DNA of 64,000 nucleotides, taken from positions 5,951 to 69,950 of the forward strand of contig JBBIHC010000002.1 in assembly GCA_037447235.1 (NCBI GenBank). Reading direction: 5' to 3'. Positions 8,955 through 17,975 of the stretch are shown in pieces. A model generated the notes under the pieces. That model made no database searches. It saw only the letters and a program-made list of their open reading frames with translations, and was not told the DNA's origin. The position numbers and the translations under genes were made by a program. The stretch is from Candidatus Micrarchaeota archaeon (lineage in GTDB: Archaea; Micrarchaeota; Micrarchaeia; Anstonellales; Bilamarchaeaceae). Every line of letters starts with the position of its first letter. Within the stretch, counting starts at the first letter, position 1.

Positions 8955-9023
8955 TTTTTTTCGTCAGGCTGCAAAACGAATACATTTTTAAATAAACACT
9001 TATAATTATCGCCAGGTGACAAT

Positions 9024-9422
9024 ATGTTTGGAATGGTTGGGATAAGGCTGCTTGATGGGAGCGTTAGCATAAAAGAGGATAAGCCGCCGAAAGGCCTTTC
9101 TATAGACCTGAAGATAACAAAAATCTCAAAGACCGACAGGGAAGATCTCGCGAATGTCAGGTTTTCCTATCTTGTGGGCTACACGCCGAATACTGCTGTC
9201 CTGAAGCTTGAAGGCGAGGCGCTGGTGACTGATGAACCTAAGGAATTGGATAAAATGGTTTCATCCTGGAAAGAGAAGCACAGGATAGACGAGAATATGG
9301 CCGCCAACATCCTGAATGCGATTAACCCGTATGTAACGCATAACGCTTTGCTCGTTCTCAGGGCGTTCAACCTGCCTCCGCACATCGCTCCTCCCCCAAT
9401 AATGCCGTCAAAAAAGAAGTAA
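9024..9422 (+). CDS. Hypothetical protein.
   Basis: A 132-aa ORF in the same orientation as the downstream membrane protein, with tight spacing to it. Confidence 0.35.
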   Translation: MFGMVGIRLLDGSVSIKEDKPPKGLSIDLKITKISKTDREDLANVRFSYLVGYTPNTAVLKLEGEALVTDEPKELDKMVSSWKEKHRIDENMAANILNAINPYVTHNALLVLRAFNLPPHIAPPPIMPSKKK

Positions 9423-9428
9423 GTTGGT

Positions 9429-10157
9429 TTGATGGAGCTCAAGACCGTCTTTTCCGCTTACGGCGAAAAGCCATTTCTTTTCATCTGGGGCTCAGTGCTT
9501 TATGTCTTCTTTTCACTGCTTGTGCTGTTTGCCACGACAGGCATACTCCTTTTTTCCTCACTCGCGCTTTTCTTTGCGGGTTTTCCGCTTTCTTTTGAAG
9601 ACTACACGACCATCACCCTCTACGCAATCCCCCTTCTCGCTGCTGTGTTTTTTTTGATATACATGAACGGCTGCATAACGGCAGCAACAATATACGCATA
9701 CAAAAAAGCGCTTACGGGCTCGCATGTTTCCCTTGTTGAGTTCTATCATTACGGCCTGTCGCGCGGCCCGATGATCTTTTCAATAGGCATAATGCGCGAT
9801 TTCTTCATGCTCATCATAATCGGCATCGGCGTAGCGCTCTATTACTATGCCCTGCAGGACTGGGAATACGGAATCCATCTTCTCGCTTTGTATTCTCTCT
9901 CGGTTTTCTTTGTCTTCCATCTAACCGCAAAACCCGGGATAATCGCGTGCGGGCTTGGCGCAGAGCCATTTGAGGCATTCAAGGAGCTTTATTTCGTGTT
10001 TGCAGAAAAGCACATATACTATGTGAGCTTTTTCTTCATCTACAGCATCATCTGGCTACTGAATTTCATCCCGCTTATCCAGTTTGTCTCCCTTCCTGTT
10101 CTCTATCCGCTTGTTTATAGCGCGCTTATCACGATGGTTGAGGAAGAAAGAAAGTGA
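9429..10157 (+). CDS. Polytopic integral membrane protein.
   Basis: The 242-aa protein has 6-7 hydrophobic helices. It ends in TGA 4 nt before the next ATG. Confidence 0.5.
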   Translation: MMELKTVFSAYGEKPFLFIWGSVLYVFFSLLVLFATTGILLFSSLALFFAGFPLSFEDYTTITLYAIPLLAAVFFLIYMNGCITAATIYAYKKALTGSHVSLVEFYHYGLSRGPMIFSIGIMRDFFMLIIIGIGVALYYYALQDWEYGIHLLALYSLSVFFVFHLTAKPGIIACGLGAEPFEAFKELYFVFAEKHIYYVSFFFIYSIIWLLNFIPLIQFVSLPVLYPLVYSALITMVEEERK

Positions 10158-10161
10158 TGCT

Positions 10162-10470
10162 ATGGAAAGGCTGTACGAAGTCGCATTGGAGAAGAAGCAA
10201 GCCTTGACGAAAGTGCTTGAAGCAGACCCTTATGCTACTGATAGTTTTGCCAGGGTTGGCTACAGAATTCGTGACGGCGCCTCGCTCGGCGAGGACAAAT
10301 CAAAGGTTTATCTTTATATTTCTTCCTCAGCGGATTTCATAAGAAAGGCAGATGCAGCGCTGAAGGATATTGCTGTTGTGGCTGAAGGGAAAAAAGCAGA
10401 AAGTATAATCAAAAAAATAAAAGAAGAGGAAGAGGCGGCAGAGCAGGGGCTTGGCTCCCTTTTTGGTTAG
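10162..10470 (+). CDS. Small acidic protein with a ribosomal P-stalk (aP1/L12e-like) C-terminal tail.
   Basis: The 102-aa protein starts with MERLYEVALE, which resembles the archaeal P1 MEYIYAALLL. It ends with ...KKIKEEEEAAEQGLGSLFG, a match to the conserved stalk C-terminal motif (EEE...GLxxLFG). The middle region is atypical for P1. Confidence 0.4.
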   Translation: MERLYEVALEKKQALTKVLEADPYATDSFARVGYRIRDGASLGEDKSKVYLYISSSADFIRKADAALKDIAVVAEGKKAESIIKKIKEEEEAAEQGLGSLFG

Positions 10471-10576
10471 CCGGTTGTTTGGCAGTGCTTTGTGCAGGTA
10501 CCCGATTTTTTACAAAACATCACATTTATAAATATTTAATGTGTTAATATATATCAGTTAGCGGTTATAAATCACG

Positions 10577-13500
10577 GTGAGCGGGATGAAGATAAAATAT
10601 TCAGGCAGAAAGGATGCGAAAGATTTAAATAGCGTTAGTGCGACTAGTTATAAGCCGAAATCTTTCTCGGCAAAGCATCCGTTGCTTGCTAAAATACTGG
10701 CAACATGTTTAATGTTTGAAGGTGTGTGTATGCCGTTTGGAAGTGTTAGGGCGGCCCCGAGGGAGGCGGCGGGAGCGGAAAAGAAAAACGAAGTGGCAGA
10801 GCAGGCAAAAATCCTAAAAGAATTCACTAATCTTATTCCTAAAATTAAGGCGGAGCAAAAAACTGCCCGCGTGTCTGAAAAGTTTCAGGGCTACATAACT
10901 GCAGACAGCGAATACGCTAAACAAATCTTTAAACTTTTGCAAAAGTTGGGTTTTGTAATAAAAATTAACGATAATGCGAGAAGAGACGGCATATACATCG
11001 GACAAGGCACTAATATATTGTCGGTTTATCTATTTGACCAAACGGTTGAGGGTGTTGTGAATCTCGGCAAACTGGATGATCTGTACAAGAAAGTAATTGA
11101 AGTATTTAACCAGAAGCAGGCTGAAAGTTTGGCTGAGGAAGCTTTGGTAGGGCTGGTGCAGGCAGTGCCGGCAAAAACCGCTGGCAAGGAAGAGGAGCCT
11201 ATCCCGGTCGGGCTGGCTGAGTCTGAAAAAACTAAAGAAACTAAGCCACCAGAAGCCCAAGCCGAAGAGCCCGCTCATGCTGAAGTTAAACAATCTGTGA
11301 AGGTAGATGTAGAAGAGGTAATAAAGGACTTTAATGGGTTTTTAGACAATTGGTCTTTGTTTGCTATAAAGTTAAATCTTTCTCTCGCGAGCATCGCCCC
11401 TCCCCAAAAAATCAACAAAAACGATAAACAAGCCATTCAAAAAATAGCACAGACATTGTTTAAGGATTCAGAAAATTTGCTAGGCCATTTCAATAAAATG
11501 CAAAACAATGATGATAAACTACTTTTTTTGTCCAATCATATTAAGGCACTGCTTCACCTGCAAGACAAAGCCCTCCTGGAGTACATAAAAGAATCTGAGA
11601 CCACGCGCGGGGAAAAAGAAGCGGTTAAAAAAATACTAAAAAGTAAAGGTGTCAAAGTTGACGGCTTTTCCATATACAGCGTTGTAGGCGCGAGAATGCT
11701 TTTATTGCGCATAAACGAGATGGCTCTGCGACACCACGAAAACAAAGCACAGAAGTTGTTCCAAAATAAAAACAAAGTCAAAAACGACATGGGAGAAAAC
11801 TATGAAACTTTCAAAAAAATCGTTGATTTGGAGCACGAGCGTTTACTGCATATGCACGATCCTGATCTTAATAGGGCCAACAAAAGACTATTTAACAGTC
11901 TTGTTTCTAACAAACTTTCTTCCGTTGGCAGCAGTGTCGTACAAAGCGCTTTCGGCGCCGATGATGGATTTTTCAAGTTGCTGGAAGATATACCCGAAAA
12001 TCTGGACCCCAATAAAAAAGAAATCGCATTATATACACTGTTGTCAATCGCAGAGCTTAAGCTTTTATTGGACCTAAAAGAAAAAGACGTTATTAAAAAA
12101 GGAGACAAAACTGGTGCAGAGGCTAGCCTTGGGCTTGCGAAAGACCAGTTTGTAAGGCTTTTCATTAACCGAGAAAAAGAAGAAGAGAATATGAGGCTGC
12201 AAGACCAAAACGTCGACCTTTCAAAAGCCATCAATGACAACGCCGCGTTGGTAATTGCGAATGCAGGCATTGCGAAGATTCTGCCTTACTGGCACGATTT
12301 TGCCGCTTACATAAACAGGAATTATTATCAAGTTGACAAACCGGATCTTAAAAAAAGATACGATGCTGTTTTTGACTTGTTGGCGTATAATTTGAACGTA
12401 ACAAACATCCAAAAAGGATACTACCCAATGAGATACGCGGCCATCGCACAATTGCGCCCCTCGCTGACGACTTCAGCGGATAGAGAATATGTTGGAACTT
12501 TATTTACTAATGTTGTAGGCCCGGAACAAATAGAAAAAATATATAAGAAAGGTGCAGGCTATCATCAGGCATTTACTCCTGCTTTGCTGGGCATAGGCGG
12601 AGGAAGCACCAATTACATTGTCGGCGACCTAATGGTTAAAGAAATCATTAGCGACAAATTTTGGAGTACTGCTGATAACATTAGGGTGGAATCCCAAAAT
12701 AGTAGTCTTGAAAAAAGAAAGGACTATCAAAAAAATTCAGCTCTTCAAGACATATTGCAGAAAGCAGGAGTATGGTATATCGAAAAACTGCTGGCTTTTG
12801 GCGCGCCAACCGCAGTTGAGATAAAGAAGGAGGAAAAGACAGAAGAAATGCAGGCAGAAACTACGCCGCCTGCCATACTGCAACTTCCGTCCCTCCTGCC
12901 AGAGCGGTTCCCGCAGCCTTTTATGCCTTCCCGCTACACTGCCAAGGCAGGCGAAACTAATTACATATTCGGCGAAAATATGTCAGCCGCGCTGACATCT
13001 ATGTTTGGCGAGGAAAAGACAAAGGGTTTATACGATGCATTTGCAGAAGGCTTAAATGCCAAAGACCCCGAACAGGTTAAAAATGCTGCATCTGCTCTTT
13101 ACGATATTATATTAACCGGTTGGAATCCGACGAGCGATGCGGACAGCGGCACAAAAGCAGCTATTTTAAAAGCGCTTGAGAAGGCAAAAGAAAGCGGCGA
13201 TACAGCGGATTTCAAGATGGCGCTTATGACATTCAGCGACCGCCTTGGGGTCAACCTTTTGGAAAATTTCTATACTTACCGTTTTGAAGGCGATACGCTG
13301 AGAGTCAGGATCCCCATCGGGATTGAGGTGGCGCTCCGCTTGGGCTTGTCTGAATCTGAAATAAGAAGCAAAGTAGAAGCGCGGGGAGTCGCGTTCCTGA
13401 CAGGGTTGGCTGTTCAGCTTGGCTATCTTTACCGCCCGGTCAATGGCAGATTATCAGAGTACCAATTAAAGGGCTTTGATGAGCAAGGAAAATTAATAGT

Positions 13501-14188
13501 TGAACCGACAGGGGAATCCATCTCGGCAACGCTTGAAACGCACGCCATTGACATTAACACAGCTCTTGACTTGTTGGCTTTCAAGGCGCCTGAAGCTTTG
13601 GGGGGTATTGGGGTTATAAGGGTGAATGCGGCTGTTGAAATAGACAAGGCATCCCTGAAAACAGCCATCCACGGCCAGCCGCTTGCCATAAGCGACTGGG
13701 TTGCTTCATTCAAAAGCATAGGAATAAGCGCTGACTTTCCTGGAGGCGAAGGCTTAAAGATAAGATCAGTCGGCCTCGGAGGATGGGGCATAGGCAGCAT
13801 AAGCGAAGAAGGGCTGAAGTGGGACCCAACGAGCAACTGGTATGGAAATGTTGTGCTGGGGTGGACTGAAAAGTTGGATGAATATCAACCACTTGCGTTG
13901 CAGCGGCTGACATTTTATTTAAGCCCGACAGTTCTTTTCGGCGGGCAGACAGGCTTTTCGTTGACAGGAGGCATTCAGTCAGTCCATAGAATTTCAGAAA
14001 ACTGGTATGCTCTGCCGGCGCTAAACGCAACATACCTTTACGACGGCAGGAATAATTATGGCCAAGGGTCCACCGAAGTCCTGTTCAATTTTGCGCCTTG
14101 GGGGCTTGCTGCCGGCCTTGGAGCTTCTTTGGACAGCAACCTTAATTATTCAGTTATGCTTTTGTTCAGGTTTAACCTGGAGAGATAA
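10577..14188 (+). CDS. Very large ORFan protein of 1203 aa. Has an N-terminal hydrophobic anchor, a long K/E-rich helical region, and a Gly/Ser-rich beta-like C-terminal 250 aa.
   Basis: A long uninterrupted ORF preceded by an AT-rich promoter. The N-terminus has the hydrophobic stretch LLAKILATCLMFEGVCMPFGSV. The C-terminal segment has alternating hydrophobic residues (...GFSLTGGIQSV...NYSVMLLFRFNLER). It is the first gene of a three-gene operon. Confidence 0.5.
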   Translation: MSGMKIKYSGRKDAKDLNSVSATSYKPKSFSAKHPLLAKILATCLMFEGVCMPFGSVRAAPREAAGAEKKNEVAEQAKILKEFTNLIPKIKAEQKTARVSEKFQGYITADSEYAKQIFKLLQKLGFVIKINDNARRDGIYIGQGTNILSVYLFDQTVEGVVNLGKLDDLYKKVIEVFNQKQAESLAEEALVGLVQAVPAKTAGKEEEPIPVGLAESEKTKETKPPEAQAEEPAHAEVKQSVKVDVEEVIKDFNGFLDNWSLFAIKLNLSLASIAPPQKINKNDKQAIQKIAQTLFKDSENLLGHFNKMQNNDDKLLFLSNHIKALLHLQDKALLEYIKESETTRGEKEAVKKILKSKGVKVDGFSIYSVVGARMLLLRINEMALRHHENKAQKLFQNKNKVKNDMGENYETFKKIVDLEHERLLHMHDPDLNRANKRLFNSLVSNKLSSVGSSVVQSAFGADDGFFKLLEDIPENLDPNKKEIALYTLLSIAELKLLLDLKEKDVIKKGDKTGAEASLGLAKDQFVRLFINREKEEENMRLQDQNVDLSKAINDNAALVIANAGIAKILPYWHDFAAYINRNYYQVDKPDLKKRYDAVFDLLAYNLNVTNIQKGYYPMRYAAIAQLRPSLTTSADREYVGTLFTNVVGPEQIEKIYKKGAGYHQAFTPALLGIGGGSTNYIVGDLMVKEIISDKFWSTADNIRVESQNSSLEKRKDYQKNSALQDILQKAGVWYIEKLLAFGAPTAVEIKKEEKTEEMQAETTPPAILQLPSLLPERFPQPFMPSRYTAKAGETNYIFGENMSAALTSMFGEEKTKGLYDAFAEGLNAKDPEQVKNAASALYDIILTGWNPTSDADSGTKAAILKALEKAKESGDTADFKMALMTFSDRLGVNLLENFYTYRFEGDTLRVRIPIGIEVALRLGLSESEIRSKVEARGVAFLTGLAVQLGYLYRPVNGRLSEYQLKGFDEQGKLIVEPTGESISATLETHAIDINTALDLLAFKAPEALGGIGVIRVNAAVEIDKASLKTAIHGQPLAISDWVASFKSIGISADFPGGEGLKIRSVGLGGWGIGSISEEGLKWDPTSNWYGNVVLGWTEKLDEYQPLALQRLTFYLSPTVLFGGQTGFSLTGGIQSVHRISENWYALPALNATYLYDGRNNYGQGSTEVLFNFAPWGLAAGLGASLDSNLNYSVMLLFRFNLER

Positions 14189-14202
14189 TTTCAGGTGGAT
14201 GT

Positions 14203-15672
14203 ATGTTTGATGAGAAGGTTGAAAAGGCGCTTTGGGTTATTGATGTCGCTGCAGGAAACAAGGCAGCGGCAAATCCAAACGACTGGGCATCAGTTGTGCT
14301 TTACTCCACAAGGGTTATGCAACTGTATGACCTCGCCGGCAAACTAAGCAACTGGTCAAAATATGTCTATGACAAGAGCAATGCGATTTTGGGAGCAGAT
14401 GCGGTTTACAAACTCAAAGCCGCGAGAAAGGACGCCCTTATGAAGCTTGCTTCCCTGAACCCGAAGCAGTTAAGTGAGATAAAGCCACTACTAAGGGAAG
14501 ACATTGTCGGGCTGAGAATATTCGACGTTGAGCCTGAAGTCCGGGAGGTGTACTATAAGCTGTTAACTACCATCGCCAGGGAAACCGAGATGAGGCGCTA
14601 CAAGATTGCGCTGACATCTCCAACACCACTTTCAATCTTGTCAAGCGAGCCGGGCTATATGGTTGTTATGATGGACAAGCCGCACCTTCCTGCCGAAACC
14701 GTGGCTGAATTTGAAAGCGCGAGCGATGCCGCCGCTTTCTTCTCAGCTTTTCTCACTCTTGCTCTTTATGCCAAGCAGAAAAGAATGTTTGATGCCGAGC
14801 AGATAGCCAAGGATAAGCTTGCCTCAAAATACGCGAGGGAGTCATACAAGATTTTCAGCAGAAGCATAAGGAAAGACAAGCACATCCCAATAGCAGAGGC
14901 AATACGCTCAGGAAATGTCTGGGAGGCAGTGGCTGACCTGCAGATGGAAGAAAGCTTTTACAATGCCTTTAAGCACATGTGGAAAGCCACCCTTGTATCT
15001 TTCGGCTTCGGCGAGATGAAGCTTACATCTTTTGTGTCAGAAACTACGCTGGCAATAGATAAGTACGGGCTTGAAAAAATGGCTGAAGCGTTTGAGAAAA
15101 ACAAAAACGCGACAAAAGAGTATCTTACGGCGATATGCCTTCTGAATACTGCCATTCAGGATTATTTCCTTGACAGGAGAATTTACCTTTCAAGGGAGCT
15201 TGAGCCGGTCCTGCCTTCTGATATGGGCTGGAAACTTCCTCTAACTGTTGTTATGGAATGCACTGCTGATTGCAAGCCCATAAAGCCCCTGGACAACCTG
15301 CCTGCCTCATTGTTCGGCATAAAAAACATCAGGATAGACACTGCTGACAGCAAGTTTGTCTATTTTGGGAAAGCCCCGGAGGATTTCAAGATTGACCCGA
15401 TTAACGGGACTGTGGCAAATGTTATCATTTATTCCGTGCCTGACAGCGAGTTTTACAGGGGAAACCTGTTTTTCATCCCTGAAGCATTGCACTGCCTTGC
15501 TTCCATCGCGATAAACAGGATATTGGACGGCAGGGTTGTCGCGGCCATAAATTCCAATCCGGGCTTGAGAAAGCTGAAGTTTATTTCAGAGGATGGTAAA
15601 AACGGCATTGCAGGATACTTTACCGATTACCTTAAAACTCAGCAAAAAATCGCAAAGAGGTCGAAAAAATGA
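14203..15672 (+). CDS. ORFan protein of 489 aa, probably cytoplasmic.
   Basis: Lies 15 nt downstream of the previous gene, and its stop overlaps the next start. It has no signal peptide. Confidence 0.45.
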   Translation: MFDEKVEKALWVIDVAAGNKAAANPNDWASVVLYSTRVMQLYDLAGKLSNWSKYVYDKSNAILGADAVYKLKAARKDALMKLASLNPKQLSEIKPLLREDIVGLRIFDVEPEVREVYYKLLTTIARETEMRRYKIALTSPTPLSILSSEPGYMVVMMDKPHLPAETVAEFESASDAAAFFSAFLTLALYAKQKRMFDAEQIAKDKLASKYARESYKIFSRSIRKDKHIPIAEAIRSGNVWEAVADLQMEESFYNAFKHMWKATLVSFGFGEMKLTSFVSETTLAIDKYGLEKMAEAFEKNKNATKEYLTAICLLNTAIQDYFLDRRIYLSRELEPVLPSDMGWKLPLTVVMECTADCKPIKPLDNLPASLFGIKNIRIDTADSKFVYFGKAPEDFKIDPINGTVANVIIYSVPDSEFYRGNLFFIPEALHCLASIAINRILDGRVVAAINSNPGLRKLKFISEDGKNGIAGYFTDYLKTQQKIAKRSKK

Positions 15673-17975
15673 AAAAGCTGTTTTATCTTATCTTGTTGCT
15701 GGGCTTGTCTTTTGCCCTTGAGAGCTGGGTTGGCACTGAGTACTATGGTTTTATTGATCCAAATAACTACCGGATGATAGCCCGCCACGGCGTTTATGTC
15801 GGAAAGGCGTCCTGTGCCGTGGATGGCGTTGTTTTGAGCGGCGACCCTTGCGAGCAGGGAGAATCAACAGTATGCGCAGGCACTGTTCTCAGGTACACTC
15901 CTGCCATAAATGCGAACTGGCGAACCTCTGATGTAAGGACCGCGACGCGCTATCTGTCCCTTGATAACCTGCCTTTTGAGGATTATTCCTCTACAAGCAC
16001 CTATCAGGTAAAATGGCTTGACAATGAAACTTATTACAGGTATGATGCCGAAGGAGAATGTTTTCCCGGCCTTGGCTTGGGGAACGGCTGCGTGAAACAG
16101 GATATATGGGATTCCTTCAATGAAGGCTTGGGAGAGCTTTATCCAGAACTTGGCGGCCCATCCACATTCAACTATCCGCAGGCGGTTACATACGGCGTGC
16201 TTTATCCGAATACTAGCTTTTTTTCAAACAAAAAAGGATATCCAATGGTCTTTTGCCACGGAAGATACAGGGTCAAGTACGGCCTGGACATTTATGTGGT
16301 GCTGGAAGAAGGAGATATGGCTGATTTGGCAGGCCCTGAACTCACCGAGAGGGTTTTCACATTTGACAACCCGGGCAGGTATGCGATTACCACCACATTG
16401 TCTGATCTTGACTGTTTCGGTGCAGTGGTCGGCCATCCGCGCAACGACAACAACAACCCCCCAAACAACATAAGCAATTTCGTTCTTCATTTTTTTGGCA
16501 ATGATGTCCACGGCTCGTTTGATCCGCACAGGAGTTTTTCAGACCAACACATAATAAATGTTGTTGATGGAGATATGGCGATTGATGTTAGAAGCGACAA
16601 CATAATAGCAAGAGACGGCTATGGCCACTATCTTCTGGCAACAGTGGTGCAGAATACCGGGGATTTTGCCGTCAACATAACCAACGTGTCTGCAGGCGCC
16701 CTTCAGGGAGCCTCTGCAACGCCTTCAACATCAAACTGGTGCCGGACATATTTTGGAAACCGGTTGGAATGCTTCCTGGGCAATGGTTATAATACGGCAA
16801 TACAGCCGGGGGCAAACACCACCCTTTACACCATCTTTTCATATGCCGGGCAGGAATATGAGCTTTGCGGCCAGCCTTCGATATTTAAGCTTGAATTCGT
16901 GCCTGCCGGCCCTGCCTGCGTTCCGGCAAATGAGAGTGGTTTTGCCGATGTTGGCGGCCCTTGCGGCTCCTATCCGTCCTGCGTGATAACTCCCCAGAAC
17001 AGCACCATCGGCCCGTTTGAGGTCCACCAGTGGAACGTTTCCTGCTTCACTGAACAGGGCGCACCAACATCCTGCACAGGAAACGACTGGCGGCTTGAAG
17101 GCATAGACGGAGACATCATTACCGGGACCAGCGAATACGCTCACGCGGTTTCCTATGAGGAAACAAGAACAACAGGGCAGATAGTTTATGTCCAGGGCAA
17201 TTCAAGATGCTCTGCCGGCATCACAGTTGACCCGTCATCAGTTGTCGCTGAATGCGACTTTGACCCTGCTTCAGCCTACCTTGATGTTGGCGAGTCGCAG
17301 GATTTTGATCTCCTTTGCTCTTTGAACAGTCAGCCAAGAACTCCTGACAGCGCTGATTACAACCTGACTGGAAATCTTGCCGGCACCATCCAGCCTTATC
17401 CCAACCCGGTTGAAGGAGCCATATTCGTTTCTTCAGATATGAGTGCCGGAAACCTGATGGGCATCGGCTGGTTCACCTCGCCCTCAGTTCCGACTTTGAG
17501 GGGCGCGGTTGCGTTTGCCTACATCCAGGTTGGCTGCGAGGAAGACGAGATATTGCAATGCCATCTTGAGTTCGTCGGCATCGGGCCCGGCGGAGAATAT
17601 GTGTATGAGCAGGTTTGCGAGTGCATACCTGCTGGCCAGAACCAGACCGGCGGCGGCGATGACAGGGAAAAGAAATTCTGCGTGATAGCGCCTCCTTTCC
17701 AGCAGATATCACCGCTTCAGCCAGGCAGAGCCAGCGTATCCTGTTTCATTGAGGACGAAAATGGCGTGCCCAGGGAGGTCGAATGCGGCCTGGTCAGCTG
17801 GAGGATAACAGAAAGCCTTGCAAGGCTGTCAAACCAGTACGGCGAAAATGTCGTTTTCACTGCTGTCGTTGGCGCTACCGGCGATGGTACGCTAACCGCT
17901 GAAATGGCTGACAACAACAAGGAATGCGAAGCAGCATTCAGGGTTACACCCTACACCTGCCAGGAAATAAGCTAA
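15669..17975 (+). CDS. Secreted Cys-rich ORFan glycoprotein of 768 aa.
   Basis: The signal peptide is MKKLFYLILLLGLSFALESW. It has more than 25 Cys, and many N-x-S/T sequons (NET, NTS, NIS, NIT, NVS, NTT, NES, NST, NQT). It is translationally coupled to the upstream gene by an ATGA overlap. Confidence 0.5.
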   Translation: MKKLFYLILLLGLSFALESWVGTEYYGFIDPNNYRMIARHGVYVGKASCAVDGVVLSGDPCEQGESTVCAGTVLRYTPAINANWRTSDVRTATRYLSLDNLPFEDYSSTSTYQVKWLDNETYYRYDAEGECFPGLGLGNGCVKQDIWDSFNEGLGELYPELGGPSTFNYPQAVTYGVLYPNTSFFSNKKGYPMVFCHGRYRVKYGLDIYVVLEEGDMADLAGPELTERVFTFDNPGRYAITTTLSDLDCFGAVVGHPRNDNNNPPNNISNFVLHFFGNDVHGSFDPHRSFSDQHIINVVDGDMAIDVRSDNIIARDGYGHYLLATVVQNTGDFAVNITNVSAGALQGASATPSTSNWCRTYFGNRLECFLGNGYNTAIQPGANTTLYTIFSYAGQEYELCGQPSIFKLEFVPAGPACVPANESGFADVGGPCGSYPSCVITPQNSTIGPFEVHQWNVSCFTEQGAPTSCTGNDWRLEGIDGDIITGTSEYAHAVSYEETRTTGQIVYVQGNSRCSAGITVDPSSVVAECDFDPASAYLDVGESQDFDLLCSLNSQPRTPDSADYNLTGNLAGTIQPYPNPVEGAIFVSSDMSAGNLMGIGWFTSPSVPTLRGAVAFAYIQVGCEEDEILQCHLEFVGIGPGGEYVYEQVCECIPAGQNQTGGGDDREKKFCVIAPPFQQISPLQPGRASVSCFIEDENGVPREVECGLVSWRITESLARLSNQYGENVVFTAVVGATGDGTLTAEMADNNKECEAAFRVTPYTCQEIS

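Follow-up and report, generated by a model that had tools for sequence, protein, structure and literature searches.

In an archaeon of the Bilamarchaeaceae, a family of very small symbionts, three large co-directional genes, here termed g4, g5 and g6, form a translationally coupled operon whose order and promoter are conserved in divergent relatives and whose members are all under purifying selection. We propose, at a probability of roughly 0.35, that their products may form a lineage-specific heteromeric complex of the cell envelope, acting as a tether or a pore. The genes lie in a 64-kb window, by which we mean the whole stretch of 64,000 nucleotides that was analysed.

The g4-g5-g6 operon and its distribution

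The operon and the unit upstream of it comprise the following features.

8982–10470, forward strand: g1-g2-g3 operon, with a promoter of its own (TATA element at 8982–8994) and a T-run terminator
9024–9422, forward strand: g1 (132 aa)
9432–10157, forward strand: g2 (6–7 TM segments)
10162–10470, forward strand: g3 (102 aa)
10522–10534, forward strand: archaeal BRE/TATA promoter element ACATTTATAAATA, predicted to drive g4-g5-g6; a T-run lies before the element, after the upstream stop codon
10576–10580, forward strand: Shine-Dalgarno-like GGTGA, 5 nt 5' of the probable g4 start ATG 10586
10586–14188, forward strand: g4, 1200 aa from ATG (1203 aa counted from GTG 10577), an orphan, fast-evolving ORF
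14189–14202, forward strand: g4-g5 spacer TTTCAGGTGGATGT, with AGGTGG as Shine-Dalgarno sequence for g5 (translational coupling)
14203–15672, forward strand: g5, an ORF of 489 aa (pI 8.8), better conserved than g4 and g6
15669–17975, forward strand: g6, an ORF of 768 aa (pI 4.35), secreted-type and with no C-terminal anchor

A preliminary description of this DNA had listed three co-directional large ORFs of 1203, 489 and 768 aa, and the ORF calls (10577–14188, 14203–15672 and 15669–17975, all on one strand) bear this out with small corrections. Judging from the sequence, the start of g4 is most likely ATG 10586, and an ATG-equivalent start is used in the NCBI protein P0001 (1200 aa) and in the L001 orthologue. 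GTG 10577 was considered as a start and is disfavoured, its letters lying inside the GGTGA motif. The spacer between the first two genes, previously put at 15 nt, measures 14 nt and is unchanged in L001, and the ATGA overlap reported for the second and third genes is present, with the g6 start overlapping the g5 stop. The 13-mer ACATTTATAAATA upstream of g4 has the same letters in all four divergent lineages, and ACATTTWTAAATA as a pattern has just two occurrences across the 64 kb, against 0 expected by chance. By these signals g4-g5-g6 reads as one transcription unit, driven from a TATA promoter of archaeal type that is conserved and consensus-like.

The gene order is kept in at least five lineages of the Bilamarchaeaceae (Micrarchaeota, DPANN), namely W/L001/L002/L009, P0013, L003/L010, L006-8 and L011, and is constant despite differing flanking genes; the comparison of synteny in relatives thus found order and coupling preserved within one archaeal family. 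The dN/dS values are 0.50 for g4, 0.076 for g5 and 0.175 for g6, next to 0.09–0.14 for the housekeeping neighbours (ProRS, 0.088). Conserved in synteny and with dN/dS below 1 throughout, the three ORFs are more than chance, and purifying selection acts on each of them. Profiles from Pfam and NCBIfam gave zero matches to g4, g5 and g6, as did searches against PHROG (viral families), PADLOC (defence families) and PDB sequences and profiles, and when the C-terminal 674 aa of g4 were searched exhaustively with phmmer against 1.84 billion proteins, clade orthologues alone were returned (6 related clusters). The earlier failure to place the trio in known families therefore extends to all of these resources, and no homology to a known enzyme or housekeeping family was detected by sequence. 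Orphan status applies at the sequence level: for g5 and for the greater part of g4, the quality of the AlphaFold2 models is too low to rule out remote structural homologues. On these searches the trio is confined to Bilamarchaeaceae, with no sequence relatives outside the clade.

The trio keeps one chromosomal position, flanked by housekeeping genes, even among lineages at 31–52% protein identity, which is difficult to reconcile with its being carried by an integrated virus or a mobile element (as envelope or entry glycoproteins, for instance) or being decaying lineage-specific junk. This reading draws on the orphan status of the proteins, on the resemblance of Cys-rich secreted proteins to viral glycoproteins, and on the GC minimum of the window (0.418), which falls over the 5' half of g4. 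The GC dip is, however, explained by the K/E/N-rich composition of that region, all of the genes are under purifying selection, neither PHROG matches nor relatives among viral contigs (IMG/VR) were found, and inspection of the called neighbours revealed neither an integrase nor a repeat or tRNA boundary. We consider viral cargo or junk very unlikely.

The g1-g2-g3 operon always adjoins the trio in Bilamarchaeaceae, and the g2-g3 pair is present without g4-g6 in more distant lineages; g1-g2-g3 probably does not contribute to what the trio does. FtsZ lies directly 5' of the g1-g6 block in L003, L006 and L011 and 4.7 kb 5' in the window, where the only three TTTWTAAATA boxes are those of FtsZ, g1 and g4. 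Together with a helix-rich g4 and a cytoplasmic g5, this could point to a cytoplasmic, FtsZ-linked cytoskeletal or division module, with g4 as a helical scaffold partnered by g5 and with g6 acting outside the cell at the division site. We think this unlikely, since each unit has a separate promoter and T-run terminator, four unrelated genes separate FtsZ from the block in the window lineage, and the distant g2-g3 pairs are found away from FtsZ. The arrangement in L001 and in the window points instead to a coupling of the trio that is independent of FtsZ position. Moreover, g6 has the look of an exported protein and 25 invariant Cys, the dN/dS of g4 is unlike that of core division proteins, and SepF, CdpB or other division families were not detected in the trio with Pfam and NCBIfam.

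The three proteins

In the giant protein g4 these regions were distinguished.

10682–10747, forward strand: residues 36–57, hydrophobic segment, a marginal signal anchor or h-region of putative topology, motif LMxEGVxMPxG
10754–12163, forward strand: residues 60–529, K/E-rich region, helix-prone by composition, variable and indel-rich
12164–12946, forward strand: residues 530–790, conserved central region, Tyr/Asn-rich and then a Pro-rich linker, motifs NDNAALVIANAGI and GAGYHQAF
12971–13273, forward strand: residues ~799–899, helical bundle, the part predicted best in the AlphaFold2 model
13445–14179, forward strand: residues 957–1201, predicted antiparallel beta-barrel of 12 strands, outer-membrane-porin type

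Orthologues of g4 are 1142–1219 aa long and 31–63% identical. A conserved basic N-tail (KDLN...SFS) precedes the hydrophobic segment. The N-terminal anchor described previously is present as a segment but is marginal, having a Kyte-Doolittle value of 1.67 with K and E within it, and is sub-threshold in one lineage. Likewise, of the ~900 aa of K/E-rich helix described, residues ~60–530 are indeed K/E-rich, whereas the rest is not and heptad periodicity is sporadic, limited to four short patches. The helical half of g4 is thus not one continuous coiled coil, and a rigid 'stalk' is therefore unsupported. Residues 60–529 show a dN/dS of 0.46 and many lineage-specific indels; such fast evolution and indels would fit an exposed protein. 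The AlphaFold2 pLDDT of residues 530–790 is below 35.

The C-terminal ~250 aa are Gly/aromatic-rich with a dyad hydrophobic periodicity, in agreement with the beta-type alternation noted before, and AlphaFold2 folds them into a beta-barrel with a hydrophobic exterior, ahead of which a 26-residue helix (residues 926–951) is predicted. A bacterial-porin-like barrel at the g4 C-terminus is a low-confidence prediction from one AlphaFold2 model, built on a 5-sequence alignment with mean pLDDT 47 (50–75 within the barrel). Foldseek with this model gave no match at E<1e-3, the best being ~1e-2. Full-length g4 had no Pfam match at E≤1, including the KdgM, Autotransporter, ESPR and FapF families; the barrel region of seven orthologues gave one faint PagP match (E 0.054) and nothing else against Pfam at E≤10, and a search of PDB profiles came back empty at E≤10, OMPs included. 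The low pLDDT, the shallow alignment, the modest Foldseek E value and the lack of sequence similarity to OMPs would all be accommodated if AlphaFold2 had produced the barrel as an artefact, or if the domain were a soluble one of beta type, and hydrophobic alternation is found in soluble sandwiches and barrels too. The products of g4 and g6 would then be lineage-specific secreted or anchored adhesins in which nothing inserts into a membrane, and g5 an unrelated co-transcribed protein of the cytoplasm, which we regard as rather doubtful.

The middle protein, g5, is 52–88% identical across lineages. No signal peptide, TM or hydrophobic segment was found in it, in line with its initial description as lacking a signal peptide, and from its sequence it looks cytoplasmic. 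Its AlphaFold2 model is poor (pLDDT 51) with a helical N-terminal ~260 aa, and its Foldseek matches were uninformative.

In g6 the following features were delimited.

15669–15725, forward strand: residues 1–19, putative Sec-type signal peptide MKKLFYLILLLGLSFALES, read by eye from the sequence
16962–17252, forward strand: residues ~432–528, repeat A, a Cys-framed unit of ~100 aa (hhalign)
17253–17534, forward strand: residues ~529–622, possible repeat B, with Cys/Gly spacing alike by eye and no hhalign support
17670–17972, forward strand: residues ~668–768, repeat C, homologous to repeat A (hhalign)

The signal peptide attributed to g6 is matched by a signal-peptide-like hydrophobic N-terminus common to all orthologues. 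More than 25 cysteines had been reported, and we count 27 (3.5%), of which 25 are invariant in orthologues at 41–42% identity; the C-terminus, PYTCxEIS, is also invariant (PYSCLEIS in L011). In place of the ~20 N-glycosylation sequons claimed there are 11, compared with 6.1 ± 2.2 after shuffling (P~0.03), and none of their positions is kept in at least four of six orthologues, so that g6 might at best tentatively be called a glycoprotein. Aligned with hhalign, sub-alignments of g6 matched residues 416–490 to 651–727 (probability 94%, E 1e-7) and 449–523 to 682–762 (probability 86%). The ~100-aa unit is unrecognised by Pfam, repeat C giving only faint Ig-like matches (Ig_SibA, E 0.13; BiPBP_C, E 0.03).

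A candidate envelope tether or pore

In the complex that we propose, the basic N-tail of g4 and the weak hydrophobic segment after it would bring about insertion or export, and the long, fast-evolving helical region of the protein would reach outward. The protein would end in a four-helix bundle and the porin-like barrel of 12 strands, whose hydrophobic exterior may sit buried in lipid, either in a second layer of the cell's own envelope or in a host-cell membrane; g4 would therefore be a tether and/or a channel. The secreted g6, stabilised by perhaps 12 or so disulfides, might be an exposed binding or decorating subunit by virtue of its ~100-aa repeats, and g5 would be kept in the cytoplasm as a conserved assembly or base partner. 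That the products lie where proposed, join in a complex, insert into a membrane or take part in host contact is inferred, as is the surface structure (a fibre, a hook, a cap or a device for cell contact) of the preliminary description.

A porin-like barrel, if true, would be very unusual in an archaeon. To our knowledge, archaea lack BAM-type insertases (Omp85/BamA), and a second membrane is absent in most of them. The analysis covered the 64-kb window and fragments of relatives, and no Omp85-like ORF was noticed among the neighbours scanned. One cultivated Micrarchaeon has an S-layer and no outer membrane (10.1101/2021.04.28.441871).

The predicted 12 antiparallel strands of g4 (pLDDT 50–75) would recall the bacterial 12-stranded porins KdgM, NanC and VhGalP. 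However, g4 lacks sequence similarity to these, has its barrel confined to the final fifth of its 1200 aa and comes from an archaeon in which neither an outer membrane nor BAM machinery is known. A C-terminal barrel with a helix before it, as predicted for g4, would also recall the type V autotransporters (BrkA, Hbp, NalP, EspP), intimin and FapF; upstream, however, g4 is helical and K/E-rich rather than a beta-helix passenger, and there is no periplasm or outer-membrane context. In contrast to the inverse autotransporter intimin, Ig-like modules, if any, are on a separate polypeptide, g6, and unfused. Tethers of the OmpM and Deinococcus SlpA type consist of an SLH domain, a coiled coil and a beta-barrel of 16–30 strands. 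The plan proposed for g4 would be similar, in that an end anchor, a long spacer of helix and a barrel in a membrane would join two envelope layers, but g4 has no SLH domain detectable with Pfam, only sporadic heptads, 12 predicted strands instead of 16–30 and, as its would-be anchor, a weak N-terminal hydrophobic segment.

The main alternative, somewhat less probable, is that the trio encodes an unusual two-component S-layer or wall, with g4 as a membrane-anchored stalk bearing a beta-rich lattice or pore head, g6 as the canopy and g5 as an accessory. S-layer proteins typically evolve fast and are lineage-restricted, as the trio is. The conserved, consensus-like TATA of g4, one of the three TTTWTAAATA sites in the window and a hint of high expression, is in keeping with this reading, as are a secreted-type, acidic, repeat-bearing g6 and the succession in g4 of anchor-like N-terminal segment, helical region and beta-rich end. 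The Sulfolobales SlaA/SlaB and Staphylothermus tetrabrachion systems likewise comprise large co-transcribed exported proteins with an anchored helical stalk and an outer layer, and archaeal two-component S-layers share with the trio a lineage-specific, fast-evolving character and an acidic outer subunit. They differ in that g6 is Cys-rich, the anchor is N-terminal instead of C-terminal and the third subunit is a conserved cytoplasmic protein, whose encoding between the two others an S-layer leaves unexplained. Nor is the predicted hydrophobic barrel of g4 a known S-layer element, its exterior being ill-suited to a solvent-exposed lattice, and a more canonical surface glycoprotein is already encoded at 121–2379 of the window. 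For Micrarchaeum, it has been discussed that a second subunit of stalk type would be needed (10.1101/2021.04.28.441871). The S-layer protein of Micrarchaeum harzensis has a detectable S-layer domain and almost no sulfur-containing residues (10.1101/2021.04.28.441871), whereas in g4 and g6 no S-layer domain (for example TIGR01567 or the Pfam S-layer families) was found with Pfam and NCBIfam, and g6 has its 25 invariant Cys.

As an observation in its own right, the product of 121–2379 combines a signal peptide and a C-terminal TM anchor with a beta-helix and 17 sequons.

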